64,000 nucleotides of DNA, from NCBI RefSeq assembly GCF_049060185.1, contig NZ_JBMEQO010000002.1; one strand, 5' to 3'. Each line of letters opens with the position of its first letter. The first letter of the stretch is position 1. Positions 8,474-59,950 of this stretch are shown one piece after another. A program made the translations under genes and the position numbers. The notes below the pieces were generated by a model. That model saw nothing but the letters and a program-made list of their open reading frames with translations, did no database searches and was not told the origin of the DNA. This DNA is from Nannocystis pusilla. GTDB taxonomy: Bacteria; Myxococcota_A; Polyangia; Nannocystales; Nannocystaceae.

Positions 8474-11400
8474 ATGCACATGCCGACCTCTATTCGCCTC
8501 GGCAATTCGGAGGAACGCTCGGCTCTCTGTCCCGTCGTCGGTATCGGCGCCTCCGCCGGCGGCCTCGAGGCCTTGGAGCAACTGTTCGCCCACGTGCCGC
8601 CCGAGCCCGGCGTGGCCTTCGTCGTCGTCTCGCACCTCGCCCCGCACCTCCCGAGCCTCATGCCCGAACTGCTCGCCAAGCAGACGGCGCTGCCGGTGAG
8701 CGCGGCAGAGGACGGAGCGCGCGTCGAGCCCGACCACGTGTACATCATCCCTCCCAACGCGGCCCTCACCCTCGAGCACGGCGCGCTTCGACTCGAAGCG
8801 CGAGACGACCGCACCAACCTCATCGACACGTTTCTCCGCTCCCTGGCCGAGGAGCGCGGAGAGCGAGCGATCGGCGTCATCCTCTCCGGGACCGGCAGCG
8901 ACGGCAGCCTCGGCCTCAAGGCGATCAAGGAGCACGGCGGGGTGGCGATGGCACAGGACCTCGCCTCCGCGAAGTACAACACGATGCCCCGCACCGCGAT
9001 CGACGCCGGCCAGGTCGACTGGATCCTCCCGGTCGAGGCGATGCCCGCCAAGGTGATGGAGTACGTCGCACGCATCCAGAGCGCCGGCGCAGGCCCGGTC
9101 GATGGCGCGCACGATGCGACCAGGGCGCGCGAGCACGACTTGCTGATGCATCAGCTGTGCGGGCTCATTCACCGCAGGACCGGGCGCGACTTCAGCCGCT
9201 ACAAGCGTTCGACGATGGAACGACGGGTGCAGCGGCGAATCCATGTGCTCCAGCAGCGCTCGCTGGAAGATTACGTCGACCTGTTGAAGAACACGCCCGC
9301 GGAGGTCGATCGGCTGTTTCAGGATCTGCTGATCAGCGTGACCCAATTCTTCCGCGATCCCGAGCTGTTCGAGGCGCTGGCTCGGGACGTCTTGCCGCGG
9401 ATCCTCGCGGACCGGGCGCCGGACGACCCGGTGCGGGTGTGGGTCCCCGGCTGCGCCACCGGCGAGGAAGCCTACTCGATCGCCATGCTCCTGGCCGAGG
9501 CGCCGCAGACGGCGGCCCTCGGCGCCAAGATCTTCGCCACCGACATCGACGACGAGGCGCTGGAGATGGCGCGGGCCGGGCGATACCCGGAGACGATCGC
9601 GGACCGAGTCTCCCGGAGCGGCTCGAACGCTTCTTCGCGCCCCGAGCGAACAGAGGGTGGCAGGTTCGCAAGGAGATCCGGGACATGTGCGTCTTCTCGA
9701 CGCACAGCATCATCAGCGATCCACCGTTTTCGCGGCTCGACCTGATCTCGTGCCGAAACGTGCTGATCTACCTCGAGAGCGATCTACAGCGAACCGTCTT
9801 TCCGTTGTTCCACTACGGTCTCCGTCCCGGCGGCTTCCTTTGCTCGGACCGTCCGAAAACGTCACGGCCCACCCCCAACTGTTCGCCGCCGTCGATGCGA
9901 AGCAACGGATCTTCCAGCGGAAGGAGGCGAAGGTCTCCGTCAGGTTTCCGGTCGGGGGCCTCGCCCTGTCCGGTCGTCGGATCGCCGAGGCGCCGCAGGG
10001 CCACGAGGCGGCGACCCGGGATCAGAGCCTCACCCGGACGCTCGAGCGCCTGATCCTCGCCGTCTATGCGCCCCCGCCGTCATCGTCCGCGGCAACGGCG
10101 GGATCGTGTTCGTCTCGGGGCAGACGCGGAAGTTCCTCGAGCTCGCGCCGGGCGCGGCGGGGATCAACGTGCTCGAGATGGCCAGCAAGGAGCTCCGGCC
10201 GCACTTGCACGTGTTGCTGCGCGAGGCCACCAGCAAGCGCCAGGAGCGGATCCAGCGCGGTGTCTCGCTCCCCGTCGACGGCCGCATTCAGCCGGTCGAC
10301 ATCGTCGTCCGGCCGCTCCTCGAGCTCGGCGCGGACTCCGATCTGTACGCCGTGATCTTTTACGAGGCAGGCACCTCCCTGAGCCCCGAACAGGCGGAGG
10401 CCGAGGGCCGCGCCCCGCAATCGGCGACGCGCACGCCGTCGCGCTCGAGACCGAGCTGCGCAGCACGCGGGAGAACCTGCAGACGGCGGTCGAGGAGCTC
10501 GAGGTCGCGAACGAGGAGCTGAAGTCGACCAACGAGGAGCTTCAATCGTCCAACGAGGAGCTCCAGTCGGCCAACGAAGAGCTCCAGACCTCGAAGGAGG
10601 AGCTGCAATCGATCAACGAGGAGCTCCATACCGTCAACGCCGAGCTGAGCCGCAAGCTCCAGGAGCTCGACAAGGCCAACAGCGACCTGCAAAACCTGTT
10701 CGCCAGCAGCCGGATCGCCACCGTGTTCCTGGCCGGCGACCTCACCATCAAGCGCTTCTCGCCCGAGGCGAGCCAACTGTTTCGGCTGATCGACAGCGAC
10801 GTCGGGCGCGACATCTCCGACATCGTCCCGAGGTTCGCCGGCGGTGACCTCGTCGCGGACGCCGAGCGAGTGCTGCAGACCCAGTCCGCGTCGCAACGCG
10901 AGGTCCACCTGCTGGATGCGGATATCTGGTACCTGCAGCGGATCCAGCCCTACCGATCGACCGACGACGTGGTCATCGGCGTGGTCATCACATTCGTCGA
11001 CATCACCGATTTGAAGTCCGCCCGGGACTCGGCGCGCCGGCTGGCGGCGATCGTGGAGTCGTCCCACGACGCCATCCTGGCGCTCGATGACCGCGCTGCG
11101 ATCGTGACCTGGAACCCCGGCGCCGAGCTGATGTTCGGTCACACCGCGAAGGAAGCCGCCGGACGAACGATCGACTTCCTCGCCGCCCCCGGCGAATCGT
11201 CGCCGTTCGCCTCGGCCTTCGCCGCGGCCCTCCGCGGCGAGCGCAGCCCGCCGATCGAGGCGTTCTTGCAGCGAAAGGACGGCTCGTCGGTGCGGGTGCT
11301 GGCGAGTATGTCGCCCATCACCGACACCCAGGGCAGCCGGGCCGCGGTCTCGTGGATCGCGCGCGACATCACGGAGCACGAGCGCGACCGACAGGCCCTC

Positions 11401-12556
11401 CGCGAGAGCCAGGAGCGCTTCCACGCGGTCAACGCGGCGGATCGGAAGAAGACCGAGTTCCTCGCCCTGCTGGGCCACGAGCTGCGAAACCCGCTCGCGC
11501 CGATCCGCAACGCGATTCATTATTTGCGGCGGGCCGTGCCGACCCCCACCCCGAGATCCAGCGGGCGGTCGAAATGGTCGATCGCCAGGCCGCGCACATG
11601 GCCCGGCTCATCGATGATTTGTTGGACGTCTCCCGAATCTCCAGCGGGAAGATCCTCCTCAAGAAGCGGCGCGAAGACCTCGTCGCCGTGGTCCGCACCG
11701 TGGTCGAGGATCACCGCACCGAGGCGGCCCGCGCGGGGTCTCCGTGCAGTTCACCGCCCGCGAGCCTCTCCCGGTGAACGGAGACGCGGTGCGGCTGTCG
11801 CAATGCATCAGCAATATCCTCGGCAACGCGTTCGATTCACCGACCCCGGCGGACGGATCTCCGTCGTGCTCGAGCGGCGAGGCGACACCGCGGTCGTGCG
11901 GGTGAGCGACAACGGCGTCGGCATGGACCCCGAGACTCTGGCCAGAGCCTTCGAGCCCTTCGCGCAGTCCGACATTCACCTCGCACGAGGGCGGGGCGGC
12001 CTCGGCCTCGGCCTCTCGCTCGTCAAGGCGCTGGTCGAGCTGCACGGGGGCACGGTCGAGGCGACGAGCGCGGGCCAGGGACGTGGTACGGAGGTCTCGA
12101 TTCGGTTGCCCCTCGTGGCTTCAGCCCCGCCCGCCACGGAAGCGGACTCGCCGGAGCTCCCGGGCCCCCCGACGATCGGCGGCACGTGCTCGTGATCGAG
12201 GACAACGAGGACGCCGCTCAGAGCCTCGGCATGTTGCTCGACATCTGGGGTCATACGGCCGCGATCGCCGACTCGGGCGCAGCAGGGGTGGAGGCGGCGC
12301 TCGCAGATCCACCCGACGTGGTCCTGTGCGACCTCAGCTCTCCGGCTCCATGGACGGCTACGAGGTGTGCCGGGCCCTCCGCGCGGCCTCGTCGACAGCA
12401 GGCGCCCTCATCATCGCCTTGACCGGTCACGGCCTCCCATCGGACACGGAGAATGTCAAGAGGGCCGGCTTCGATCTGCATTTGATCAAGCCGGTCGACC
12501 CCGAAGCGCTCGCGCGAATCATCCATCACTCGCCGCTCGTGCATGCGCCCGGTTGA
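8474..12556 (+). CDS. Hybrid sensor histidine kinase (~1360 aa): CheB-type methylesterase domain, CheR-type methyltransferase domain, heptad coiled coil, PAS domains, HisKA, HATPase_c and a C-terminal receiver domain. At least 8 frame changes.
   Basis: CheB: CPVVGIGASAGGLEALEQLF...VVVSHLAPH. CheR: RDFSRYKRSTMERRVQRRI...VWVPGCATGEEAYSIAMLL. Coiled coil: NEELKSTNEELQSSNEELQSANEELQTSKEELQSINEELHTV. HisKA: FLALLGHELRNPLAPI. HATPase: VSDNGVGMDPE...GGLGLGLSLVKALVELHGGTV. REC: VLVIEDNEDAAQSLGMLLD...PGMDGYEVCRALR...LIALTGHGLPSDTENVKRAGFDLHLIKP. The pieces come from ORFs 8426.., 9657.., 10066.., 10106.., 11352.., 12186.. and 12083... Confidence 0.75.
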
Positions 12557-13009: not shown

Positions 13010-13477
13010 TCAGGTGCCCAAATTGTCGTTGAGGCCCCCTCCGCGTCCGCCACGGTGGCCCAGATCTGAAGCTTGCTCCCCGCGGTGGACAGGACTTCCT
13101 GAATGCTCGCAGACACGGAGGCGAGCACAAGCTTGCAGTCCGTCCCGGCAAACCCCTCAAGCCATTCTTTGAGCTGGTCCAAAGCGGCAGATCCGGAAAC
13201 GTCCACGGAGGTCACGTCGGTCAGGTCCAGTACGACCCCGCGCATATCCTGGACCATGTCGGCAACTATTTTTAGGCCTTGGTAAGCGTCGCTGTTGACG
13301 TCGACGTCGACGAAATCGCCTCTCAGAGCCACGACGCCGATGACGCCGTCTCGCCGGTAGTTCTCGATTTGCCAAGTCATGTTCGTTGGGGTTGCCACCG
13401 CTGGTGTTGCCGCCGTTGCCGCCGTTGCCGCCGTTGCCGCCGTTGCCGCCGTTGCCGCCGTTGCCGCCGTTGCTCAT
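13010..13477 (-). CDS. STAS-domain protein (anti-sigma-factor antagonist, SpoIIAA/RsbV-like). It may carry an N-terminal MSNGGNGGNGGNGGNGGNGGNGGN extension joined by a +1 frame change. It probably ends ...ADAEGGLNDNLGT after a second frame change.
   Basis: STAS segment: MTWQIENYRRDGVIGVVALRGDFVDVDVNSDAYQGLKIVADMVQDMRGVVLDLTDVTSVDVSGSAALDQLKEWLEGFAGTDCKLVLASVSASIQEVLSTAGSKLQIW. The ATG at 13477 sits 7 nt after an AGGAG ribosome-binding site. An alternative in-frame ATG for the STAS domain alone is at 13377. Confidence 0.6.
13406..13468. repeat. Perfect tandem repeat, 9 bp x 7 (GTTGCCGCC on the + strand, which is GGCGGCAAC read as Gly-Gly-Asn on the - strand). It lies directly after the ATG at 13477.
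   Basis: Seven identical units are read directly, with no degenerate copies. Confidence 0.9.
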
Positions 13478-13548
13478 GATCAACTCCTACCCCTTGATAT
13501 CATCTCATCAGGTGCTTTGACTCGAGCCGTCAGTGCGTTTTGACAACG

Positions 13549-21702: not shown

Positions 21703-21769
21703 GCCACCGGAGTAGCCCTGGCCGGCGATGACGACCAGTGATACTTCCTCATGCCATGCATCACTGGTG

Positions 21770-22712
21770 GTGATACTCGTGGACCTCGCAGCGATCGACC
21801 TCAACCTGTTCCTCGTCCTCGACGCAGTGCTCACCGAAGGCAGCGCCACCGCGGCGGCGCGACGCCTGCACGTCACGCAATCCGCGGTCTCGAACGCCCT
21901 CGCACGGCTGCGCGAGGTCGTCGGCGACCCGCTCGTGGTCCGGCGCGGCCGCGGCCTGGCGCCGACCCCGGTGGCAGTCCAGCTGCAGCCGCGGATCGCC
22001 GCCGGCCTGCACGAGCTGCGGGCTGCCCTCGCCGCCGGCCGCGAGTTCGACCCTGCCACCACCACGCGCCGCTTCTCCATCGCCCTCACCGACAACCAGG
22101 AGGTCTCCGACCTGCCGCGGATCGTCGCCCGCTTCGAGCGCCAGCTCCCGTGCGCCTCCTTGCAGGTCGTCACGGTCGAGCGCCTGATCGCCAGCGACGG
22201 CCTCGCCGCCGGCCTCGTCGACCTCGCCCTCGCCCCCGCCGCAGTCACTGCGCCCGGCCTGCGCCAGACCCCGCTCTACAGCGAACAGGGCGTCCTCGTC
22301 GTCCGCCGCGACAACCGCAAGGTCGGCCGTCGCCTCGACCGCGCCGCGTTCGAGGCCACCCCTACGTCGACGTGCAGATCCTCGGCGAGGGCGGCCACGG
22401 CCACCGCGTCGCCCGCGACAACCTCGCCCGCGCCGGCCTGCGCCGCCGCGTCGTCCTCACCGTCCCGCACTTCATGGCCGCCGCAGTCGCCGTCTCGCGC
22501 ACCGACTGGATGACCGGCCTCCCGCGCCGCTTCGCCGCCGAGGTCAGCCGCCGCCTCCCCTGCGCACCGTCGCCGCCCCGCTCGAGATCGTCGACTTCCC
22601 GCTCGCCCTGCACTGGCACGCGCGCACCGACGCCGACCCCGGCGCGCAGTTCTTCCGCGCCCTCGTCGTCGCCGCCCTCCGGCCCCCGGCCCCCGCGCGC
22701 GCTCCTGAGTCG
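21770..22712 (+). CDS. LysR-family transcriptional regulator (GTG start; 2 frame changes).
   Basis: HTH: IDLNLFLVLDAVLTEGSATAAARRLHVTQSAVSNALARLRE. Substrate-binding domain: ...GHGHRVARDNLARAGLRRRVVLTVPHFMAAAVAVSRTDWMTGLPRRFAAE...LALHWHARTDADPGAQFFRALVV. Confidence 0.7.
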
Positions 22713-23026
22713 ACCTGTCCCCGGGGCCATGTCGTTCTTGCCCCTCGTCAATCGGCCTCGAAGACCCACCGCTCGAACTCGAACGAATCGTCGAGGGACG
22801 TGTCCGCGCCACAGCGCCAGCCGTTATCGAGCTAGTTGCCCATGGTGTGCCAACACAGGCCCAGCTTCGCGTTGTCCTCAGCAGTGTCTCATTCCGTACG
22901 ATTCACCTCGTCGCCTGCGAGCGCGAAGCCCACGACCAATCGCTGCTGAAGTACCAGGCGACCCCGTTGGCCTCGTGCTTGTCGCCCGCGGGCACGTCCA
23001 CCTGCGGCCCTTCCGCTCAGTACTGC

Positions 23027-23184
23027 GGCCCGAAGCCGTCATCGTCATCATCGTCGTCGTCGTCGTTATCGTCCTGGTCGTCGTTATCGTCGTGGTCGTC
23101 CTGATCGTCGTGATCGACCGCGCAATTTCGAAGATAGGGGATTGTGCACGAGAGGCCGCTCAACGCGATCATGGTGTCGGTCAT
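23027..23184 (-). CDS. Candidate small ORF: 52-aa peptide MTDTMIALSGLSCTIPYLRNCAVDHDDQDDHDDNDDQDDNDDDDDDDDDGFGPQY. Hydrophobic, Cys-containing N-terminus plus a ~30-aa poly-acidic tail.
   Basis: A GGAGAA ribosome-binding site lies 5 nt upstream of the ATG and a near-perfect 20-bp palindrome lies just upstream. The + strand of the same DNA gives only a poly-Ser ORF. Confidence 0.35.
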
Positions 23185-23224: not shown

Positions 23225-23365
23225 TCCGGCAACGATGAAGGTTGACGCTGCGCACGTCTCCCCGCCGCGACGCGAGGACACAGCGTTCTGCGGGCCCGTC
23301 CTGCGCGCTCGCGCCCGCGCGCCCTGGAGTTCGCCGCGAACCAGGCCGCGCCGAAAGCTGGCGAA

Positions 23366-23640
23366 AAGCGTCGATGCGACGGCCAGCCCTGGCCGTCGCA
23401 TCGACGCCGACGCACTGCTTCAGGCGCCGCGAGCGAACGAAGCCGAGCTCGGCGCGGCGGCTCCTCACGGCTGCAGCCGTGCCAGGGGTCCGGGGAAGGG
23501 CCGCTGCAGATTAGAGACAGGATGGGCGCGAGGAACGAGCGTCCATCCTGTCGGTTGACTCGCGGCCGGACCTTCCCGGACCCCGCGAGGCGCAGTCGGC
23601 AGTTAGCGAACCGCCGACCCCAAGCTCCGCTCAGGTCAAG
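23366..23640 (-). repeat. Copy 1 of a ~270-nt highly structured element (4 hairpins). Candidate ncRNA or structured MITE/terminator module at the 3' end of the PfkB kinase gene. It overlaps that gene's stop codon.
   Basis: Second copy at 53423..53706, about 85% identical. Hairpins: 23368..23407 (19-bp perfect arms around GGCCAG-CC-CTGGCC), 23466..23481 (CACGGCTGCAGCCGTG), 23516..23552 and 23559..23589. Compensatory changes between the copies preserve pairing. Confidence 0.55.
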
Positions 23641-24571
23641 CTAGCCCGAGCAAAGTTCGTCAGCGAAGCGAACGTCTCGAAGCGCTTCTGGATCGTCGCC
23701 GCATCGAGCCCCTTCAGCCGGTCGTACGAGAACCCCTCGACGCAGAACGAAGCCATCACCGACCCGTAGATCATCGCCGTGCGCAGCGAGGCCCCGCTCG
23801 TCTCCACCCCGGGGCGGGCCAGATAGCCCATGAAGCCGCCCGCGAAGCTGTCGCCCGCGCCTGTCGGGTCGACCACGTCTTCGAGCGGCAGCGCCGGCGC
23901 CGAGAACACCTCGCCGTCCGCGTCGAACAGCAGCGCCCCGTACTCCCCGCGCTTGATCACCACGTTGCGGGCCCGAGGGCCCGGATCGCCCGGGCCGCCT
24001 TCACGATGTTGTGCTCGCCGCTGAGCTGGCGGGCCTCCTCGTCGTTGAGGGTCAGCACGTCCACGTTCTTGAGCACCGCCTTGAGGTCGTCGTTGGCGAT
24101 CGAGATCCACAGGTTCATCGTGTCGAGGCCGACCAGGCGGGGCCGCTGCATCTGCGCGAACACGTCGCTCTGCAGGCGCGGCTGGATGTTGGCCAGGAAC
24201 AGGAACTCACTGCCGCGGAACTCGTCCGGCAGGCGCGGCTGGAACTTCTCGAACACGTTGAGGTGCGTCTCGAGCGTCGTCCGGTCGTTCATGTTCTCGT
24301 GGTACTGGCCCTTCCAGCGGAAGGTCAGCCCGTCCTGCACGATCTCGAGCCCGGACGTGTCGACGCCCGCGGCCTTGAGGTCGGCCACCGCGTAGTCGGG
24401 GAAGTCGCGCCCGACCACGCCGACCAGCCGCACCTGGGACAGGTACGACGCCGCCATCGCGAAGAAGGTCGCCGACCCGCCGACGCTCTCGGGCCGCTCG
24501 GCGCGGGGCGTGATGATCCAGTCGATGGCGACGCTGCCGACGACGACGAGGTGGGGCTTACTGACGGTCAT
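23631..24571 (-). CDS. PfkB-family carbohydrate/nucleoside kinase (ribokinase fold). One frame change.
   Basis: MTVSKPHLVVVGSVAIDWIITP... and C-terminal DPTGAGDSFAGGFMGYLA (PfkB signature). Confidence 0.7.
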
Positions 24572-30514: not shown

Positions 30515-31682
30515 TCACTCCGACGGCAGCAGCAACAGGCCGCCGTCGATCACCACCCGCTCGCCGACCTTCGCCCCCTCCGCCAGCCCGAGCCACTCGC
30601 CGCTGCGCGCCCGATCCGCACCGCTCGCACCTCGAAGCGGCCCGGCCCGCGCTCGACCAGCACGACGTCGCCGCCGTCGCGGTGCAGCACCGCCGACTGC
30701 GGCACCGCCGGCATCGACGTCGTCGCCCGCGAGTGACGCACGCGGCCGAACATCTCCGGGCGCAGGCGGCCGTCGGGGTTCGGCAGCGCCGCCTGGACCT
30801 TGATCGTCCGCGTCTTCGGCTCGACGGTGTCGGCGATGCGCACCACCCGGGCCGCGAACGTCTCGCCCGGGTAGGCCGCAAGCTCGGTCTGCATCGACTC
30901 GCCGAGCGCGACGAAGCGGATCAGTTCTCCGGCACGTCGGCCGTCACCAGCACCGCGCTGAGGTCGGCGATCGTCATCAGCGGCTGGGCCGTGTCGGAGT
31001 GGAACTCGCCCGGCGCGACGTGCAGCTCGAGCACCTTGCCGGCGATCGGCGCGCGCACCGAGATCGTGTCGCGCCGATCGCCCGCGACCAGCCCGAGCAG
31101 CCCGAGGTGCCGGCGCGCCTGCTTGCGATCGGCCTCGCTGCGGACCACCGCCGCCCGGGCCTCGGCGTGGGCCGCATCGACGTTGTCGACCTCCTTGCGC
31201 GCCACCGCGTCGTGGGCGAAGAGCCCGTGGACGCGCTCACGATCCGCGGTGGCCTTGACCAGCCCGGCCCGCGCCGCCAGCACGTCGGCCTCGGACTGCT
31301 CGTAGTGGGCGATCGCCGCGTCGGCCTCGGGGCTGTCGAGCACCAGCAGCGCGTCACCGGCCGCCACGCGATCGCCCACGCGGACATCGACCTCGCGCAC
31401 GCGCCCGGTCACCGGCAGGAGCACGTGCGACAACCTGCCCGGATCGATCTCGAGCTGCGCCGGTGACACCACCTCGTCGGTCGACAGCTCGCGCGCAGTG
31501 ACCTCGCCGATCTTCAGGCTCGACAGCATCGGCGAGTCGGCTGGCAGCTCGATCTGCGGCGAACCGCCCGGCACCGCCGCCGGCGCCGACGCGGCCTCGC
31601 GCTGCGGCGTCCGCGGTCGACACGGCCCGAGCGAACCGATAAGCCACATCGCCATCCACCACCCGCGCGTGCTCACTGCCAA
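30515..31682 (-). CDS. czcB: RND membrane fusion protein (CzcB/HlyD family). One frame change.
   Basis: [12 protein letters not shown]..., then a hairpin/beta-barrel region, joined to [57 protein letters not shown] ribosome-binding site precedes the czcA start. Confidence 0.75.
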
Positions 31683-32972
31683 CCTCCGCTCGCAGTCACC
31701 GCCTCGATCTCGTACAGCGCCCGGGCGAACGCCGCCCGCGCCTCGTTGTAGGTCCGGCGCGTGTCGTTATGGGCCCGCTGGGCGTCGATCAGCTCGATCA
31801 GGCTGGCCTCGCCGCGGCGGTACGCGTACTCCGCCGTCGCCAGCACCTGCTCCGCCCGCGCCAGCATCCCGCCCTCGAAGCTCGCCAGCAGCTCGCGCGC
31901 CACCTCGTAGGCCACGTGGGCGTTGGCCGCCTCGATGCGGATCGCCTGTTCGACCGCCAGCGCCTGCAGATCGGCCTGCGCCGCCTGCTGACGGGAGCGC
32001 TCGATCTGCCCCTGATTGCGGTCGAACAGCCGCAGCGGCACCACCACGAAGAACCCGAGCGAGTTGCCGGTGCCGGCCAGGCCTTGCTGGCGCCGCGCCT
32101 CGACGCCGACGCTCAGGTCGATCTTGCCCTCGGCGATCTGGCGGCGCACGTCGAGCTGGGTGAAGCGCTGCTCGTCGTGCGCCGCCCGCAGATCGGGCCG
32201 CTCGCGCAGCGCCGGGCCCGGATCTCCGCCAGCCCCCGCGGCGTCACGTCGGCCCGCATCTCGCCCGTGACGGAGATCGCAGCCGCCGACTCGGTGCGGC
32301 CGAGCAGCAGCGCCAGGTCGTTGCTGGCGACCCGCTGCGCCCCTCCGCCTGCCGCAGCTCGTTGCTCGCCTGCAGCTCGGCGATCTGCGCGCGCGTCAGA
32401 TCGACCTTGGCCAGGTCGCCGTTGGCCACGCGGACCTCGTTGAGCGCGACCACGCGGGCGTACAGGTCGCGGTGCACCTTGGCGAGCTCGACCGCCGCGG
32501 CCGCGTACTGCACGTCGACGCAGGCGCGCTGCACCTCGCGGACCAGCCGGCGGACCGCGTCGCGGAGGCGCTGCTCGGCGACCGCCACGCCGGTCTCCGC
32601 GACCTCGATCCGGCGCTGGCGCTTGCGGCCGACGCGGAACAGCCAGTCGGTGCGGACGAAGAACTCCTCGGGGCCGGCGTGGTTGACGTTGTCGTAGTGC
32701 GTGCCGAGCAGGTCGAGGTGGTCGGCGCCGACGCTGAGCGTCGGGTTCAGGCGCAGCCGCGCCGAGACGATCTCGGCCCGCGCCAGCGGCACCTCGTATC
32801 TCCGGGCCAGCAGCTCCAGGTTGTGCCCCAGCGCCTCGACGACCGCCTCCTCCACGCTCATCGTTTCCACCGGCGTCAGCGGCGCCGCGCTCGCCTGGCC
32901 CGAGAGCCAGACGAGCACGAGCCCCGCGCCGCGGACGCGGAGCCGGCGCGCACGGGCATGCGAGCGAGACAC
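31673..32972 (-). CDS. czcC: Outer-membrane efflux factor (TolC/CzcC family, ~433 aa). 1-2 frame changes. Its stop overlaps the czcB start.
   Basis: Signal peptide MSRSHARARRLRVRGAGLVLVWLSGQASAAP, and OEP-repeat segments LTRAQIAELQASNELRQAEG ... AVTASGGWQ. Confidence 0.75.
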
Positions 32973-33049
32973 GCGACGGTGTTATGCCGGCGGCCCCGGC
33001 CGGCAAGCGGGCGCCCGGTCGCGCCCGGAGCCGCCGGCCGGACGGCGTG

Positions 33050-38946: not shown

Positions 38947-39141
38947 AACCTGCCCCTTCGGCCAGCCAGCCGGGTCCGTCGCAACCTGCCCCTCCGGACA
39001 GCCAGCCGGGCCCTCCCAACCTGCCCCTCCGGCCAGCCAGCCAGCTTCACCCCAACCTGCCCCTTCGGCCAGCCCGTCTCAACCTGTCTCTCCGGACAGC
39101 GCGTCCCCCTCGTCAAAACCTGCCCCTTCGGCCAGCCAGCC
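38947..39141. repeat. Six tandem ~36-bp repeats (core AACCTGCCCCTYCGGMCAGCCAGCC) related to the REP-like palindrome family. In-frame they read as a Pro/Ala/Ser/Gln-rich linker (PAPSASQP-type) joining the TonB_C domain to the TBDR plug.
   Basis: The repeats are read in the sequence. Frame 0 reads EPAPSASQPGPSQPAPPDSQPGP. After a 1-nt shift the TBDR frame reads PSQPAPPASQPASPQPAPSASPSQPVSPDSASPSSKPAPSASQPEP and runs straight into the plug domain. Confidence 0.6.
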
Positions 39142-39148
39142 CGAGCCG

Positions 39149-41211
39149 GTGCTCGACGTCGCCGCGCGCAGCCGCCGGCCGCCGCCGCGGGCCGCCAGCG
39201 ACTTCGTGGTCGAGCGCGACGTCCTCGCCGCACCGCCGCGACAGAGCGCCGCCGACATGCTGAGCAGCGCCCCCGGCGTCTACGTCGCCCGGGCCGAGGG
39301 CGAGGCCGTCGCGCACGAGATCACCCTGCGCGGCTTCAACGCGGCGCACGGCCAGGACATCGAGATCACCGCCGGCGCCTTGCCGCTCAACCAGGTCTCG
39401 CACCTGCACGGCCAGGGCTACGCCGACCTCAACTGGATCGTCCCCGAGACCGTGCGATCGATCCGCGTCACCGAGGGCGTCTACGACCCGCGGCAGGGCG
39501 ACTTCGCGGTCGCCGGCAGCATCGACTTCGACCTCGCCGTCCCGCGCCGCGGCATCCAGCTGCGCAGCACCGGCGGCTCCTTCGCCACCTTCCGCCAGCT
39601 CGTCCTGTGGGCCCCCAAGGGCCAGGACGACGAGACCTTCGCCGCCGCCGCGGTCCGCCGCACCCGCGGCTTCGGCATGAACCGCGGCGGCCTCTCGGGC
39701 ATGGCCATGGGCCAGTTCGCCTTCTCGGCCGCGGGCGGCTGGCGCGGCAAGGTCCACGTCGCCGCCTACGCCGCGCGGGCCGGCCTCGCCGGCGTCCTGC
39801 GCCGCGACGACGTCGCCGCCGGGGCCGTCGGCTTCTACGACAGCTACGGCGACCCCTCGGCCAACAGTCAGTCCGCCTCGGCCGCGCGCGGCCACCTCCC
39901 TCGAGCTCGAGCGCCGCGGCGAGGGCGGGGCGGTCACCCGCATGGCCGTGTGGACCGCCCTCGTCGACTTCCACAGCCGCGAGAACTTCACCGGCTACAC
40001 CCAGCGCGGCGTCGTCATGCCGCAGTGGGTCGGCCGCGGCGACCTCATCGAGCAGCAGAACCGCGACTTCGGCGGCGGCATGCGCCTGTCCCATCGGACA
40101 GCCGGCTGGCGCCCCGCCCCGTGGTTCCACGCCGCCCTCGAGGTCGGCGCGGCCGCCCGAATCCACAACATCCAGCAGGCGCAGAACCTGCTGCAGGCGC
40201 CGCAGAACGAGACCTGGGACCGGCGCGTCGACGCCACCGTGCTCGCCAGCGACGTCGGCCTCTACGGCGACCTCGACCTCCGCTTCGGCAAGCGCGTGCG
40301 CCTGCGCGGCGGCGGCCGGGCCGACGTCCTCCACTACGACATCGACGATCGCCTCGGCAACTTCATCGCCCCCTACCAGATCGAGAGCCACCTCGTCGGC
40401 CACCGCCGCACCGCCACCGGCGTCGCCGCCGGCCCGCGCGTCAGCCTCGAGGTCGCGCCTGTCCCTTGGGTCAGCCTGTTCGCCGCCTACGGCCAGGGTT
40501 ACCGCTCGCCGCAGGCGCGCCAGCTCGACGAGGGCGAGCGGGCCCCGTTCGCCAAGGTCCACAGCACCGAGGGTGGCGTGCGCATGAGCCCGCTCGGCGG
40601 CCGCCTCCAGCTCAGCGCCGCCGGCTTCGCCACCTTCCTCGCCCAGGACCTCGCCTTCGACCCCGAGGAGGGCCGGCTCGAGAAGGTCGGTCCGACGCGG
40701 CGGGCCGGCGCCGCGGTCCAGCTCATCGCGCGTCCGCTGCCGTGGCTGGTCGCCGCCGGCAGCGTCACCTACGTCCACGCCGTCCTGCGCGCCCCGCCGC
40801 CGGCCACCGCCGAGAACCCCTCCCCGCCCTACGTCCCCGGCCAGCTGCTGCCCTACGTCCCGCCGGTGGTCGTGCGCGCCGACATCGGCCTCGACAAGGA
40901 CCTCGTCGAGCTCAAGGGTCGCCCGCTCGGCCTGCGCGTCGGCCTCGGCTACTCCTACCTGTCCCCGCGGCCATTGCCCTACGGACAGTTCGCCGACCCC
41001 GTCCACCTCCTCGACGCCAGCGCCGCCGTGCGCTGGTCGGTCGTCGAGGTCGGCGTCGAGGCCTTCAACCTGCTGGCGCGCCGCTGGGCCGCCACCGAGT
41101 ACAACTTCGTGTCCGACTGGGGCACCCGCCCGATCCTCCCTCCTGCCCGCCCGCCACTTCGCCGCCGGCCCCCCGCTCAGCGTCATGGGCACCCTCACTT
41201 TGCACTTCTAG
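39149..41211 (+). CDS. TonB-dependent outer-membrane receptor (plug + 22-strand barrel, ends ...TLTLHF). There is no signal peptide of its own at the annotated start, so it probably continues from 38581. At least 4 frame changes.
   Basis: Plug: DMLSSAPGVYVARAEGEAVAHEITLRGFNAAHGQDIEI. Barrel segments from ORFs 39149.. and 39942... C-terminal aromatic residue followed by a stop. Confidence 0.75.
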
Positions 41212-43132: not shown

Positions 43133-43564
43133 ACCCGGCCGTCGCATCACATGTCCTTCGGGACATCCCCCACCGCGCCCGACACGGCTCGTCACCTGTC
43201 CCTCGAGCCATCCTCCCTCCCGCTCGACCAGGCGCCCGCGCGAGCCCTGCCGCGAGCCCTCGCCCGAGCGAGCGCCGCCACGCCTCGTCACCTGTCCCTC
43301 GGACCATCCTCCGTCGCGCGAGCTCAGGCGCTCGCCCGAGCCCTCGCCCGAGCGAGCGCCGCCGCCGCCGCTCTCCACCTGTCCCTCGGGCCACCCTCGG
43401 TCGCACGAGCTCAGGCGTCCGCGCGAGCCCTGCGGCGAGCCCTCGCCACTGCGACTCGCCACCTGTCCCTCGGGCCATGCTCCCCCGCGCGAGCCCTGCC
43501 GCGCGCGAGCGCCGCCGCGCCTCACCTGTCTTTCAAGACATCCTCAGCGGAGGTCTGCGCGTGA
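43130..43564 (+). CDS. Candidate 144-aa Ala/Arg-rich repeat protein, translationally coupled between exbD and tonB. Five degenerate repeats, each starting RHLSLGP... and each carrying a REP-like palindrome (CACCTGTCCCTCGGGCCA).
   Basis: AGGAGG lies 7 nt before the GTG start. Its stop overlaps the tonB GTG (GTGA). The repeat periods are 96, 87, 84 and 63 nt, all multiples of 3. Confidence 0.45.
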   Translation: MTRPSHHMSFGTSPTAPDTARHLSLEPSSLPLDQAPARALPRALARASAATPRHLSLGPSSVARAQALARALARASAAAAALHLSLGPPSVARAQASARALRRALATATRHLSLGPCSPARALPRASAAAPHLSFKTSSAEVCA

Positions 43565-51408: not shown

Positions 51409-52990
51409 GTGAGACGACCCGTGCCCACTTCCCGAACGCACCGCAGCCCGATCGCCTCCGCGGCGAGGGCCTGCCTCGCCGTGGTTCTCAGCTGTCCTTT
51501 CGTACATCTCGGCTGCATCCTCGATCCCAGCCCGCTGGGCGAGCTCCCGGGCGACACCGACGGCGCTGACACCATCAGCATCGACACCCTCGTCGTCACC
51601 TCGCAGCACGTCGACGACACCACCGTCGGCCCGCTGCCGACCACCACCGGCGAGCCGGGCACCACCGGCGACCCGCCTGACGGTACCACCGGCGAGCCCG
51701 TCACCACCGGCGACGATCCGCCGCCGGAGACCGGCTGCATCGACGGCGGCGCCTGCGAGCAGCTCGACGTCCTGTTCGTCATCGACAACTCCGGCACCAT
51801 GGGCGAGGAGCAGAGCCAGCTCGCCGACAGCTTCCCTGCCTTCGTCTCGCTGCTGCGCGGCCTCAGCGACGCCAACGGTCAGCTCGTCGGCGCCGACGTG
51901 CACATCATGGTCACCACCACCGATGTGCCGCACCCGCTGTGTACCCCGTTCGAGAAGCCCGACTACGACGCCGCCGACGGCGAGCCGATCGACACCCCGT
52001 GCACCGACCGCCTCGCGCGGTTTACCGGCCTCGGCGCCGATCCGCCGGTGATGTCCGAGATCTGCACCTCGCGCTGCGCCGAGGCTGCCCCTCGGTCCCC
52101 ACCGATCCGTTCATTCGCTTCAGCCCCACCAGCCACAACGTCATCGACCCTGACGGCATGGGCGACCCCGCGGCCGACGCCCTCGCCTGCATCGGCCCGC
52201 AGGGCATCGACGGCTGCGGCATGGAGTCGCCGCTAGAGGCCATGCGGCGCGCGCTCGACCTCGAGGCGCGGTGGAACATCGGCGAGCGGCCCTTCTTGCG
52301 CCCCGGCGCTCCGCTGGCGGTCGTCATCGTCACCGACGAGACCGACTGCTCCACCCTCAACTTCGCCTACTTCGACCCCAAGCTGCACGACGACCCCGAG
52401 TTCAGCAAGTACTGGCCGTCCCACCCGAGCAGCGGCCAGCGGACCGAGCCCACCAGCGCCGTGTGCTGGAACGCCGGCATGACCTGCGCCGACGACGACG
52501 ACGACGGCGAGTACGAGTGGTGCATGTCCGAGGACAAGCACGTCCTCCAGCCCGTCACCCGCTACACCGAGGCCCTCGCCGACCTGCGCCACCTCCACGG
52601 CAAGGAAGTCGTCATGCTCGTCCTCGGCGGCGTCCCCCAGGTCACCGAGCACAACCAAGCCCCTCCGTTCGAGCCCCTCGCCGGCGGCGTCGACGCCCTC
52701 GTCTACCGCGACTGGCAGCCCGAAGACATCCTCCCGGGCGACACCGACACCCTGACGACAAGCAGTTCGAGTTCGGCATCGGTCCCGGCTGCGTCGGCCC
52801 CGCCGGCCAGGCCGTCCCGCCCGGGCGGATCCAGGAGGTCTGCCAGGCGCTCGACATCCCCGACGACCCCGACACCGCCGTCAACGAACGCGCCATGCGC
52901 TGCTGCATCGAGTCCGTCTGCGACAGCGACTACACCCCGCCCTCGGCTGCCTCGCCGGCATGCTGCAGCCGACCCTCCACGCCATGCCCT
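51409..52990 (+). CDS. VWA-domain lipoprotein with a Thr/Gly/Pro-rich linker and many Cys residues. 2 frame changes.
   Basis: LAVVLSCPFVHLGC...; VWA: LDVLFVIDNSGTMGEEQSQLADSFPAFV...; ...VIVTDETDCS.... Confidence 0.55.
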
Positions 52991-53100
52991 GAAGGACATG
53001 CTCTAGAGGCCATGTCCTATACGACATGGTCTCTCCAACATTCCTCATGGGACATGCCTTTATCGCCAGGTTCCCCGCCCCCGCGCATGTCCCTCCGCAC
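52975..53100. repeat. REP-like palindrome cluster (~5 units).
   Basis: ccctgaaggacatgctctagaggccatgtcctatacgacatggtctc...catgggacatgcc...gcgcatgtccctccgc. Confidence 0.65.
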
Positions 53101-53422
53101 GCGAGCGAGCGGCGCTGGAGGCATGCCTCCCCGCCGACCGCCCGGCCGGATCGCCGCGCTCCATCATCCGACTCGACGAGGAGCGCCCGCAGCGGGTCGC
53201 AGCCTCGTAAACATTTTGCTCACCGTTCAGCGACGCGCGCAGCGTCGCCCGTGAACAGGCGGAAGCCGACGCGGGCGCACGGGCAGCAAGTCGCGCCACG
53301 GCAAGCGCCGGCACGCTCGACGCCTCGCGCACCTCGCGGCAGCCGCCCAGGCCGGACAGGGGCAGGCAACGGCGACCTCGCTGTTGGCGACAGCCAGCCC
53401 TCCCCGCGCGCAGATGCCACGC

Positions 53423-53706
53423 CGGTAATGACGCGAGAAAGCGCCTGTTCGGCGGCCAGCCCTGGCCGCCGAACAGGCGCCCCATGACCTGCCCCAAAAG
53501 ACACTTCCCCATCGGAGCCCACGACGGCGAGGCGGCCTCTCACGGCTGCAGCCGTGCCAGGGGTCCGGGGAAGGGCCGGCCGCGATTAGAGACCCGATGG
53601 GTGCGAGGCACGAGCGCCCATCGGGTCGGTTAACTCGCGGCCGGACCTTCCCGGACCCCCGCGAGGCGCAGTCGGCAATCGCGAACCGACCCTGCCGAGC
53701 TCACCC
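53423..53706 (-). repeat. Copy 2 of the ~270-nt structured element, at the 3' end of the alpha/beta-hydrolase gene.
   Basis: Hairpins 53441..53480, 53541..53556, 53590..53626 and 53634..53664. See copy 1 at 23366..23640. Confidence 0.55.
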
Positions 53707-55775
53707 CGGATCGCAAACCCCATCGCAAGAGTTCGAGACCACTCCTCGAGCAAGAACGCCCCGAGGATCCCCTGCACCGCCGGATCGTCGACCGCTGCTC
53801 CATGCGCCCCGTTGTCCCCGCCAGCCGGCAGATTCTCGACCGGAGGCAGCGGCCCTTCTTCGTATCGACCTGCAGCAGCGCCGACCCTGTGAACCCTGGC
53901 GGAGCCTCCTCGATCCCCCACACCGGGTACACCGAGGGTCCTGCCATCCTCATCCCGTACGAGCGGGCCATCGCCTCCGACGCGATGTTTGCCACCTGCG
54001 CGTCCCCGATCGACTCGATGAGCAGCAGAGCATCGCCTGCCTCCTCGATCACCGAGCGGTACGTCACCGGGTCTGCCACGTCGAACACCGCCTGGTACAG
54101 CGCGAACAGGAACTCACGGTTCTGCGTGCTCGGCTGAGTTGCTGCCCACACCGAGTTCACCTGCTCGAATGCAGTCGAGCGCCACACCATCAGCGAGTAG
54201 TTCGACGCGCCGACCACCAGCACCCCGCGTCGCAGGTTCGGCGCCATCGCGGTCACCGTCGCCCCCATGATCCCGCCCTGCGACCCGCCGACGTAGTACA
54301 CCGTCGACGGGTCGATCAGCCCTTGCAGCGCCGGCTCCTGCGCCAGCTCGCCCTGGGCCAGATACGCCAGCGTCGTGAAGTTCACCGTCGACTGCACCAG
54401 TCGTTCGCCCAGCGTCCGGCCGCCGACGAAGTTGCCGCCGAGCATCCCGATCACCGCCGCGATGTCGGCCTCCGACATCCCCCAGAAGTCCGTCCCCGCC
54501 ATGATGAGCGACCCGTTCTTCTTCGCCACCGACTCTGCTTCCGAGCCCGAGCCGAGCAGCCCGTGCCCGTACACCGCCACCGGCGCCGGCGTCTTCGCCT
54601 CGTAGATCGCCTGCGGCACCGCGATCCAGAAGTTCGCCGTCGCAGTGTTCGAGCAGTCCGGCAGCCCCTCCAGATCGCGGGCGAACACGGTGCCGGGCCC
54701 GCTGTCGCCCTCCAGGCAGCTCGGCACCGTGAACGTCCCGCGCACTACCAGCGGCACCTGCGTGCCCGGGAACTCGCTCACCTCCGCGATCGAGTAGCCG
54801 AGGTCCCCCGCCTCCGCGCTCGCCACCACCTGCGGCATGATCGCAGTGAAGTCGCGCTGCAGGTCCGCCTGCGTGTTCGTCGTGAAGTCCCACGCCAGCT
54901 GCAGCGACCCGCGATCGATCCCTGCGGCGGCCAACGCCGCGAAGATCTCGTCGTACCGTTCGCGCTCGGCCTCGAGCTGCGGCACGTCCGTCGACAGTTC
55001 ATCGCGCAGCGCGCGGAACAGCGGCGACGCCGGGATCTCCTCGCCGTTTTTATCGCGCAGCCCACGAACGGCGACCACGTAGCGCTCGCCCGCACGCGGC
55101 TGCCGCATCGGCCGCACGAAGATCGTCTGTGGCTCGCCTGCCACGGCCGTCGCATCGACCTCCGCGAAGTACGGCCAGCGTTCCCCGAGCCGACCTCGAG
55201 CAGCACGATCGGCGCATCGTCGGCCAGCGAACTGCCGATGTCTGTGAGCGGCGGCAGAGACGTCCCGTCGATGGGCCGCGCCGACGCGAAGCGGAGCTGC
55301 GCGTTCGGAGTGAACCCCGGCTTCCCGTTGATGAACTCGTCTGCGGGGAACTCCGCCTGCTGCGTGTTCTTCGGCAGCAGCGCCGCCGGCAGCGCCACTG
55401 CCAGCCCGGTCGGGCTGTCGCCCGACGGCGTCGTGTAGAAGTTCGACGGCCACGGGTACACGCACTGACCGCGGCCTGCCGGGTCCCCGAGCGGGTGGCA
55501 ACCGGCCTCGATGTCCGCGCGACCCACGACCTCGCAGCTCCCCCGACACACGCGTCGTCCGTCCCGCAGCCCTCGGGGCAACCGTCCTGCGCGCCGGTAG
55601 ATCCGGAGCTGCCCGATGACGAGGTCGTTGGGACAGGTTCTGTCGGACCTGTCGTCTCGGACATCTCGGAGCTCGCGCCGGTGGTCGAGGCGCCGTCGGT
55701 CGCGCTGCTCGCGGCCGGATCCTGGCAAGCGACGACGCCGACGGTGACGAGGGATACGAGGCTCGATCTGCGCAC
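53706..55775 (-). CDS. Secreted alpha/beta-hydrolase-fold lipoprotein (~680 aa). GTG start; Thr/Ser-rich linker; GxSxG nucleophile elbow YVGGSQGGIMG. At least 3 frame changes; 3' end uncertain.
   Basis: VRRSSLVSLVTVGVVACQDP...; segments from ORFs 55050.., 54778.. and 53630... Confidence 0.5.
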
Positions 55776-59703: not shown

Positions 59704-59950
59704 AAGACATCTGAACCTGTCCGCAAGGACAGACCGTGCGGCGAGGTCGGCTCACCCGGCCTCGCCGCAGTCGCGACGTCGGGCCGACGCTCGCGACCGC
59801 CGCCGCCGCGCATCACCTGTCCCGCAGGACAGGCTCCGATCGACCGCGCGCGTCGCCGAGCGCTCCTGACCTGCCCTCAAGGACAGGCACCGACCCTCTC
59901 TTCCGAGCGCGCCCCCCTCCGCACCGCCTGACGTGGAGGACATCTGACCG
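59700..59950. repeat. REP-like palindrome cluster (4-5 hairpins, for example CTGTCC-GCAA-GGACAG at 59717..59732).
   Basis: Read in the sequence. Confidence 0.75.

Follow-up and report, generated by a model that had tools for sequence, protein, structure and literature searches.

The 64,000-nt stretch of Nannocystis pusilla DNA analysed here (contig NZ_JBMEQO010000002.1 of assembly GCF_049060185.1; hereafter the window) contains two copies of an element of approximately 290 nt, which share their orientation and lie 30 kb apart among genes that read as housekeeping genes from their translations. Covariation across these and six further copies shows that the fold of the element is kept by selection, and on this comparative basis it is very probably a genuine structured RNA, one whose family is absent from Rfam. 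As judged from related genomes, the history of the family is one of long vertical inheritance at one locus, the spacer between rimK and atpE, with occasional gain and loss elsewhere. A tentative reading is that the element belongs to a small, Nannocystis-restricted family of structured RNAs, is encoded on the plus strand, and may serve as a stable 3'-end or insulator module. An initial annotation of the window was essentially right in its observation of the repeat and in proposing selection on structure; the architecture, boundaries and probable strand described below differ from it.

The window has a G+C content of 71.5%, and the proteins that it encodes match those of Nannocystis pusilla at 98-99% identity. 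Two colinear copies on the same strand, about 85% identical, had been described, and this is borne out: their alignment, flanks included, has a mean column identity of 84%, a block of 147 nt without gaps is 86% identical, and an nhmmer profile built from the copies finds exactly two matches in the window. The extent, first put at ~270 nt, holds in part, as the conserved unit reaches further left than had been thought (Table 1). Eight full copies are available in total, from at least five genomes or populations; the loci of the six beyond the window are labelled L002, L006, L049, L099, L101 and L102. The similarity of copy 1 to the rimK-locus copy of N. pusilla (L002) extends to position 23627, and copy 2 is, among the paralogues, the one nearest to the rimK-locus copy (88% identity to L002). 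Folding energies of both copies, on both strands, lie at z = -6.3 to -8.2 relative to dinucleotide shuffles.

A fold kept by selection

The consensus fold, computed on the alignment of all eight sequences (A6), consists of a helix P1 that encloses a junction and the hairpins P2 and P3, followed by a 9-nt joint, a single rod formed by P4 and P5, and a tail. P1 is a 9-bp helix between columns 27-35 and 139-147 of A6. The junction (columns 36-53) is A/U- and purine-rich and unpaired in the consensus fold, with the family consensus GUUAUUGACGCGAGARA; P2 (columns 54-94) has 19-20 bp across the family, and P3 (columns 104-131) is a weak hairpin. The rod (columns 157-292) is 131-142 nt long, has P5 as its apex, and contains a 16-nt palindrome together with the base motif GCC-G-UGC / GCG-A-GGC, in which a U.G pair is invariant. 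It is followed by a conserved tail of 14 nt (columns 293-306).

Selection on secondary structure, as initially proposed, is real and strong. In the eight-copy alignment, 95.8% of the pair cells are paired, against a shuffle mean of 86.3%, and both sides have changed in 32 of the 81 pairs, compared with a shuffle mean of 10.6; none of 500 shuffles reaches 32. In a control in which the 3' partners were slid by 1-3 columns, only 2-7 pairs carried double changes and 34-48% of the cells were paired. Double changes are found in P1 (3 of 8 pairs, with 98.4% of cells paired and strands ~100 nt apart), P2 (7 of 18 pairs), P4 (14 of 38) and P5 (7 of 13), while P3 contributes one covarying pair and is weakly supported. 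The five orthologous rimK-atpE copies alone give 25 double-change pairs, with 95.8% of cells paired. At this locus, the element is 0.57-0.84 identical between species, compared with 0.68-0.82 for the third codon positions of rimK. Its sequence therefore drifts at approximately the silent rate while its pairing is held: the structure is under selection in place.

This architecture replaces the four separate hairpins of the initial annotation, since the eight-copy consensus gives a P1-enclosed 5' domain and one rod instead. P1 itself was absent from that description and is found in both window copies. The first hairpin, now P2, was correctly described as a perfect 19-bp stem in both copies (23368-23407 and 53441-53480) with the common apex GGCCAG-CC-CTGGCC; its arms were said to differ completely, but the lower arms differ at 5 of 13 positions, all five of them compensated. 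The compensated changes and the plus-strand G.U pair reported for the third hairpin, now P5, are present as claimed, and a pairing of GGTCCGGGGAAGG with CCTTCCCGGACC, previously raised as possible, is real, covaries and forms the middle of the rod. The 16-nt palindrome is indeed shared by the copies, but in the consensus fold it engages in long-range pairing with GCGAGGCGCAGTCGG at the base of the rod. Similarly, a local CTCGCGG..CCGCGAG stem gives way to the rod, as a CG>TC change in L049, L099 and L101 is compensated in the 5' strand of the rod and not in CCGCGAG.

Other candidate features of the element were considered and dropped. A pairing of the junction CGCGAG with the 3' strand of the rod shows no covariation in L049, L099 and L101, and an A/T-rich patch that could be taken for a -10 promoter box lies inside P1. 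The ATG of a small open reading frame (ORF) in the linker is not conserved, and neither are GGA loops of the CsrA type.

The fold matches no known RNA family, in agreement with the initial annotation. A search of the whole window with Rfam 15 (4227 models) gave no match at gathering thresholds, and a permissive search with four copies returned only generic hairpins and miRNA-precursor hairpins. These include a sub-threshold match to RsmW (31 bits against a threshold of 52; E = 0.002) on the minus strand, driven by hairpin 1. An SRP-like GGUCCGG-GAAGG was also considered and rejected, as the Rfam search lists no SRP family.

Table 1. Positions of the two window copies, their parts and neighbouring genes, and the genes flanking each copy of the family
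Feature	Positions in window	Strand	Sequence, pairing, basis or context
Copy 1, whole conserved unit	23329..23612	+	A6 columns 10-306; alignments A1, A2, A3, A6; nhmmer E = 1e-91; BLAST to L002
Copy 1, P1 5' strand	23345..23353	+	GCCGCGCCG; pairs with 23450-23458; consensus fold
Copy 1, junction	23354..23367	+	2-nt gap relative to consensus; alignment A6
Copy 1, P2	23368..23407	+	19-bp stem, apex GGCCAG-CC-CUGGCC
Copy 1, variable linker	23408..23449	+	includes weak hairpin P3 (23417-23443); consensus fold
Copy 1, P1 3' strand	23450..23458	+	CGGCGCGGC; consensus fold, covariation
Copy 1, rod	23468..23598	+	131 nt; P4 = 23468-23509 with 23560-23598; P5 = 23516-23552
Copy 1, conserved 3' tail	23599..23612	+	GCAGUUAGCGAACC; alignment A6
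Copy 2, whole conserved unit	53399..53687	+	alignment A6, nhmmer, coordinate map
Copy 2, P1 5' strand	53416..53424	+	GCCACGCCG; pairs with 53525-53533
Copy 2, P2	53441..53480	+	perfect 19-bp stem; folding, consensus fold
Copy 2, P1 3' strand	53525..53533	+	CGGCGAGGC; consensus fold
Copy 2, rod	53543..53674	+	132 nt; P4 = 53543-53585 with 53635-53674; P5 = 53591-53627
Copy 2, conserved 3' tail	53675..53687	+	GCAAUCGCGAACC; alignment A6
LysR-family regulator gene	21751..22709 (end approximate)	+	same sense as copy 1, ~620 nt upstream; two frameshifts
PfkB-family kinase gene	23631..24571	-	Pfam; convergent with copy 1; two ORFs here, orthologues intact (313 aa)
Coding region upstream of copy 2	51939..53006	+	signal of G+C at third codon positions ends ~52950, then ~400 nt non-coding
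Alpha/beta-hydrolase-like ORF	53630..55549	-	convergent with copy 2; as assembled runs into the element
Site of copy 1			upstream LysR (same sense); downstream PfkB (convergent)
Site of copy 2			upstream unnamed ORF (same sense); downstream alpha/beta-hydrolase-like ORF (convergent)
Site in L002, L049, L099, L101, L102			upstream atpB-atpE (same sense); downstream rimK (convergent)
Site in L006			upstream methyltransferase-like ORF (same sense); downstream YciI-like ORF (convergent); names from reading of translated ORFs

Copies, empty sites and remnants in relatives

The further copies were found by several routes. A scan of one genome per species with a two-anchor 25-nt pattern gave one real match, beside rimK in N. 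pusilla Na p29 (L002), and a second that is a chance match in a Streptomyces coding region. The pattern is too strict, in that the copies of N. bainbridge and N. punicea differ inside it. A 19-mer scan of metagenomes found 96 stretches, and among the loci returned two are real copies by nhmmer: L049, which is orthologous to the L002 locus, and L006, which is a different locus. Additionally, RimK orthologues were followed to their contigs, which placed the element in the rimK-atpE spacer of L099 (N. bainbridge), L101 (N. punicea) and L102, a more distant genome whose RimK is 86-87% identical. The same spacer of L102 holds a second, inverted copy (11470-11640, plus strand), head-to-head with the main one, in which P2, the linker and the 3' base of the rod are kept and ~100 nt of the inner rod are lost.

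Taken together, these searches suggest few copies per genome. The exact 25-nt anchor has a single match in the 11.9-Mb N. pusilla contig of Na p29, and ~90 kb of other Nannocystis DNA contain no additional full copy, the one partial copy being that beside the main L102 copy. No match was found when copy 2 was compared with plasmids and phages by BLAST, nor in two pattern scans of viral contigs; exact-protein look-ups of the window MTAP ORF and of P0246 also gave no match.

The comparison of orthologous loci shows that the rimK-atpE copy is vertically inherited across several species, with compensation in situ. The element is alignable there, whereas the remaining spacer is unalignable between species and abounds in lineage-specific tandem repeats. 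For instance, the spacer of N. punicea (L101) is expanded to 1.6 kb, and its repeats, at 10912-11140 and 11430-12510, are a ~24-nt tandem repeat (CGCGCCGAAGCCCCACC.GCCCTC) between the element and rimK and ~57-nt repeats upstream.

Presence and absence among relatives show that the element also spreads occasionally. Empty rimK-atpE sites occur in two lineages (RimK 84-89% identical), where the spacer is 41-140 nt long and holds a simple GC-rich hairpin and no element. Similarly, the PfkB-LysR site is empty in Nannocystis sp. SCPEA4, with a 49-nt spacer. In N. pusilla GCA_049337375.1 (L115), only a ~35-nt 3'-terminal remnant that includes the tail is left beside PfkB (corresponding to window 23593-23627), followed by unrelated DNA, so that synteny between the strains breaks within the element. 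In L117, a third close strain, unrelated DNA follows LysR immediately, and this side of the locus lacks the element. A tyrosine recombinase has left its C-terminal remnant (..HSLMATTMTYYIHLDKLRKAR*) at 8140-8330 of L115, ~150 nt from the retained tail. An integrase that uses the 3' end of the element as attB was considered and rejected, given the lack of the element on the LysR side in L117; replacement or deletion is equally likely. In three further assemblies (L103, L104 and L118), the short-read contigs with rimK end 40-80 nt past its stop, where the element would begin, as is expected for an assembly break at a repeat.

Folding strand and genomic context

At all five independent loci of the family, the flanking genes converge on the spacer that holds the element, and the element reads in the same direction as the upstream gene (Table 1). 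Several observations point to this strand as the one that folds. The pair set has 43 G.U cells on the plus strand against 5 A.C cells, and some wobbles recur inside continuous helices: U.G at columns 169/281 in all eight copies, G.U at 159/290 in six of the eight, and G.U at two fixed positions of P2 in five of the eight. The consensus fold has an energy of -146.8 kcal/mol on the plus strand versus -126.2 on the minus strand. Of the five copies tested, every one has the more stable rod on the plus strand (by 2.5-18.9 kcal/mol), and three also have the more stable P2 there (L002, L049 and L006, by ~8 kcal/mol). The optimal fold of the minus strand uses different peripheral helices, and because each strand's own fold pairs similarly, the strand call rests on the G.U positions within helices and on the energies. 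By these models, the folding strand is probably plus, so that the RNA would share the sense of the upstream gene and be antisense to PfkB and the hydrolase, whose genes abut the element.

A stop codon at the same relative position (gcTCA) had been reported for the minus-strand genes next to both copies. That of PfkB (TCA, 23631-23633) is real and conserved in orthologues, but it lies 4-19 nt outside the conserved unit. The stop next to copy 2 is not confirmed: its gcTCA at 53701 is out of frame with every long ORF, the longest minus-strand ORF stops at TTA 53630-53632, and the hydrolase frame is broken near 53860, which leaves the true stop uncertain. Other genes of the window are split as well, with LysR read in three frames (21751-22709), PfkB in two ORFs (23631-24571), and breaks in the RND/MFP/outer-membrane genes (30921-32981). 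Since their orthologues are intact elsewhere, these are likely to reflect an indel-rich assembly rather than pseudogenes, so that neither the single-base indels of the copies nor the placing of the hydrolase stop with respect to copy 2 can be relied on.

Across the family, the minus-strand stop is 0-20 nt from the element in five of the eight loci, ~50 nt away in L102 and 160-230 nt away in L006 and N. punicea. A scan for intrinsic terminators (a GC-rich hairpin with a U-tract) finds none on either strand. Read on the minus strand, the tail behind hairpin 1 has no more than 3-4 U, and what comes next is paired in P1.

The window also holds repeats of other kinds. Between LysR and copy 1, ~620 nt of non-coding DNA are without counterpart in relatives and include, at 23028-23111, a tract rich in GTC/ATC triplets with a 9-nt periodicity. 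A second family of short-hairpin repeats, built around ACCTGTCCC..GGGACA(T/G)GT, occurs at 43174-43538, 38947-39173, 22712-22735 and 59797-59836. It forms four tandem units of 84-96 nt at 43.2-43.5 kb and an array with a 36-nt period after the ORF ending at ~38947, and is found as single copies after gene ends; one of these is kept after the LysR stop in the empty sites (L116 and L117). At positions 10450-10680, units of the GAGGAGCTC type recur every 21 nt and probably encode a heptad coiled coil, and positions 13397-13482 hold about nine tandem copies of GTTGCCGCC.

Possible roles of the element

If the element is, as tentatively proposed, a plus-strand RNA with a 3'-end or insulator function, it would either form the 3' end of the transcript of the upstream gene of the same sense (atpE, LysR or methyltransferase) or be made from an unrecognised promoter. 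It would act through a structure recognised by a protein, for which the GCC-G-UGC/GCG-A-GGC internal loop and the fixed G.U pairs are candidate points. The most plausible role would be that of a stable, nuclease-resistant 3' end or insulator module between convergent genes, and it might spread, rarely, through duplication or insertion of the structured unit within its exact limits. A 3'-end, insulator or other protein-binding role is inferred.

Among known systems, lineage-specific structured non-coding RNAs (Rfam-type motifs and small RNAs derived from 3' untranslated regions, UTRs) resemble the element in being intergenic, supported by covariation, narrow in taxonomic range and present as few paralogues. 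In contrast to these, the element is unusually long and dominated by a rod, lies always between convergent genes, and varies in presence by strain. Intrinsic (bidirectional) terminators are alike in that the element takes the place of the simple hairpin of the empty sites, and in that its long GC-rich helices fold on both strands; it differs in its ~290 nt, five helices, invariant internal-loop sequence and absence of a U-tract.

Several points weigh against this proposal. The evidence comes from eight sequences only, several of them closely related, and the optimal folds of the two strands pair similar fractions of cells (95.8% on plus, 94.4% on minus). The minus-strand stop is 0-20 nt from the element in five of the eight loci, which would fit a minus-strand 3' UTR as well. 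A scan on the plus strand found neither a sigma-70-like promoter upstream nor an intrinsic terminator downstream, and a plain terminator or insulator role leaves the multi-helix junction and the invariant internal-loop sequence unexplained.

The main rival explanation, drawn by analogy, is that the element is a retron-type msr-msd that lacks a reverse transcriptase (RT), with P1-P3 as msr and the rod with its short flanks as msd, and that its copies were duplicated or retro-copied, possibly by the RT of a distant retron. Such RT-less msr/msd repeats are described for Nannocystis exedens (Retron-Nex1/Ne160; Lampson & Rice 1997, as summarised in PMC6868368); in the account of Ne160 given in that summary (PMC6868368), no RT lies within 1 kb of the repeats, and a later study reports a retrotransposed partial copy of multicopy single-stranded DNA (msDNA; Lampson et al. 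2002). As far as these descriptions go, the element is alike in genus, multiple copies, lack of a nearby RT and a long stem-loop of similar size, its rod with short flanks measuring ~155-160 nt. In retron non-coding RNAs, one to three short msr hairpins come first and the msd stem-loop, which is long and stable, comes after them; terminal inverted repeats close the whole (PMC7736814). The general order is that of the fold found here, in which P2 and P3 precede the long rod; additionally, the duplicated unit coincides with the structured unit, and the family is restricted to Nannocystis. In retrons, pairing of the repeats a1 and a2 joins the 5' end of msr to the 3' end of msd, and the priming guanosine lies in an adjoining conserved AGC. 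Seven of the eight copies have an AGCG at the foot of P2, without an adjoining stem of the a1/a2 type.

It is this defining a1/a2 pairing that is absent. When the 60 nt upstream of P1 and the 60 nt after the rod were compared with RNAduplex, the duplex energies were no better than shuffles in any of the eight copies (within ~2 sd), and the flanks show no extended perfect duplex and no consistent register, only an invariant 4-bp CGCG/UCGC possibility. P1, moreover, closes the 5' domain alone and not msr plus msd. The element is therefore not classed as a retron non-coding RNA. A retron has its RT gene next to the non-coding RNA and on the same strand; here, a scan for RT motifs (YxDD/NAxxH/VTG) found none in the window or at any related locus, the downstream gene is convergent everywhere, and no retron-related family is among the Rfam matches, even up to E = 10. 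The neighbours of L117 (700-aa and HEAT-repeat proteins) were considered as accessory genes of a type XIII retron and rejected, as PADLOC gave no retron match. Overall, the msr-msd explanation is somewhat unlikely.

The initial annotation implied, among other readings, an element in the 3' UTRs of minus-strand genes; with hairpin 1 as an intrinsic terminator of the PfkB, hydrolase and rimK genes, this is decidedly unlikely. Beyond the proximity to minus-strand stops given above, it is favoured by hairpin 1 being followed on the minus strand by CUUUUCGCC or CUUUCUCGC, by the RsmW-like match, and by the fact that Watson-Crick covariation is strand-blind. However, the G.U pairs are at fixed positions, recur on the plus strand and would be A.C mismatches on the minus strand, and the consensus folding energy likewise disfavours that strand: on it, three of the five copies tested lose ~8 kcal/mol in hairpin 1, and all five lose 2.5-19 kcal/mol in the rod. 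Because the covarying P1 encloses it, hairpin 1 would not be a terminal terminator; the terminator scan was negative, and in N. punicea and L006 the element is 160-230 nt from the stop.

An explanation at the DNA level would see a non-autonomous mobile element, such as a miniature inverted-repeat transposable element (MITE) or a palindrome-associated element, or a quasi-palindrome kept by template-switch correction, with no function as RNA. Like MITE, REP/BIME, Correia and ERIC sequences, the element is dispersed, self-complementary, intergenic, without ORFs, found at gene 3' ends and absent from orthologous sites. Unrelated loci are occupied, and closely related strains and species differ in whether they have the element; the second copy of L102 is inverted and has an internal deletion; the copies always lie in convergent spacers, where insertions do least harm; short-read contigs break beside the element; and its overall divergence is near the third-codon-position rate. 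It differs from those repeats in its multiple helices, long-range covarying helix, low copy number and strand-asymmetric G.U pairs, and in the absence of terminal inverted repeats and target-site duplications. None of these was found in the boundary alignment of the eight copies with 120-nt flanks, and the comparison of empty and filled sites shows no duplication; the four bases that precede the left end vary from locus to locus, and the 5' flanks have no common target motif. A simple MITE is thus not upheld. Besides, one copy has been passed on vertically with its structure constrained, and 95.8% pairing kept through 25 double changes is not what a decaying MITE would show. Similarly, template-switch correction gives perfect pairs and not fixed G.U pairs, and covariation in P1 over ~100 nt is hard for it to explain. 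The DNA-level explanation is the least probable of these three rivals.

The initial annotation also raised an omega-RNA-like element. TnpB/IscB omega-RNAs and HEARO are alike in size, in heavy structure and in lying sometimes away from protein genes. However, the element has no adjoining TnpB or IscB at any of the eight copies, nor a TnpA as in elements of the IS200/IS605 type, and no guide-like variable end segment; HEARO and omega-RNA families are likewise missing from the Rfam search results. Gene tables, the RT motif scan and translations show no TnpB, IscB, transposase or RT in the window or beside any copy, Pfam not having been run window-wide; an integrase was likewise not seen in the translated window ORFs or beside any copy. 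Two further candidates were rejected: integron attC sites, as there are no RYYYAAC ... GTTRRRY cores at the base of the rod and no tandem cassette arrays, the copies being 30 kb apart, and the 38-bp inverted repeats of the Tn3 type, which are not present.

To our knowledge, the non-coding RNAs of myxobacteria are almost unexplored, and in this family the fold is backed by covariation, the boundaries are defined, one orthologous locus serves as an anchor, and naturally empty sites exist. Should it be no more than a 3'-end or insulator module, the element would still be useful for annotation in GC-rich genomes, where long ORF-like artefacts cross such elements, as at copy 2. A further reading, which is unlikely, combines host selection with mobility: an orphan retron-like or self-copying RNA gene would be held by host selection at rimK-atpE, and the exact RNA unit would occasionally be copied into convergent spacers through an RT encoded elsewhere or by another route. 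If this were true, it would be an RNA gene that disperses without a protein gene or canonical transposon ends. The family is a test object for two questions, namely whether the unexplained RT-less, msDNA-like repeats reported from Nannocystis in 1997 make RNA or msDNA, and how a structured RNA may spread without a transposase.

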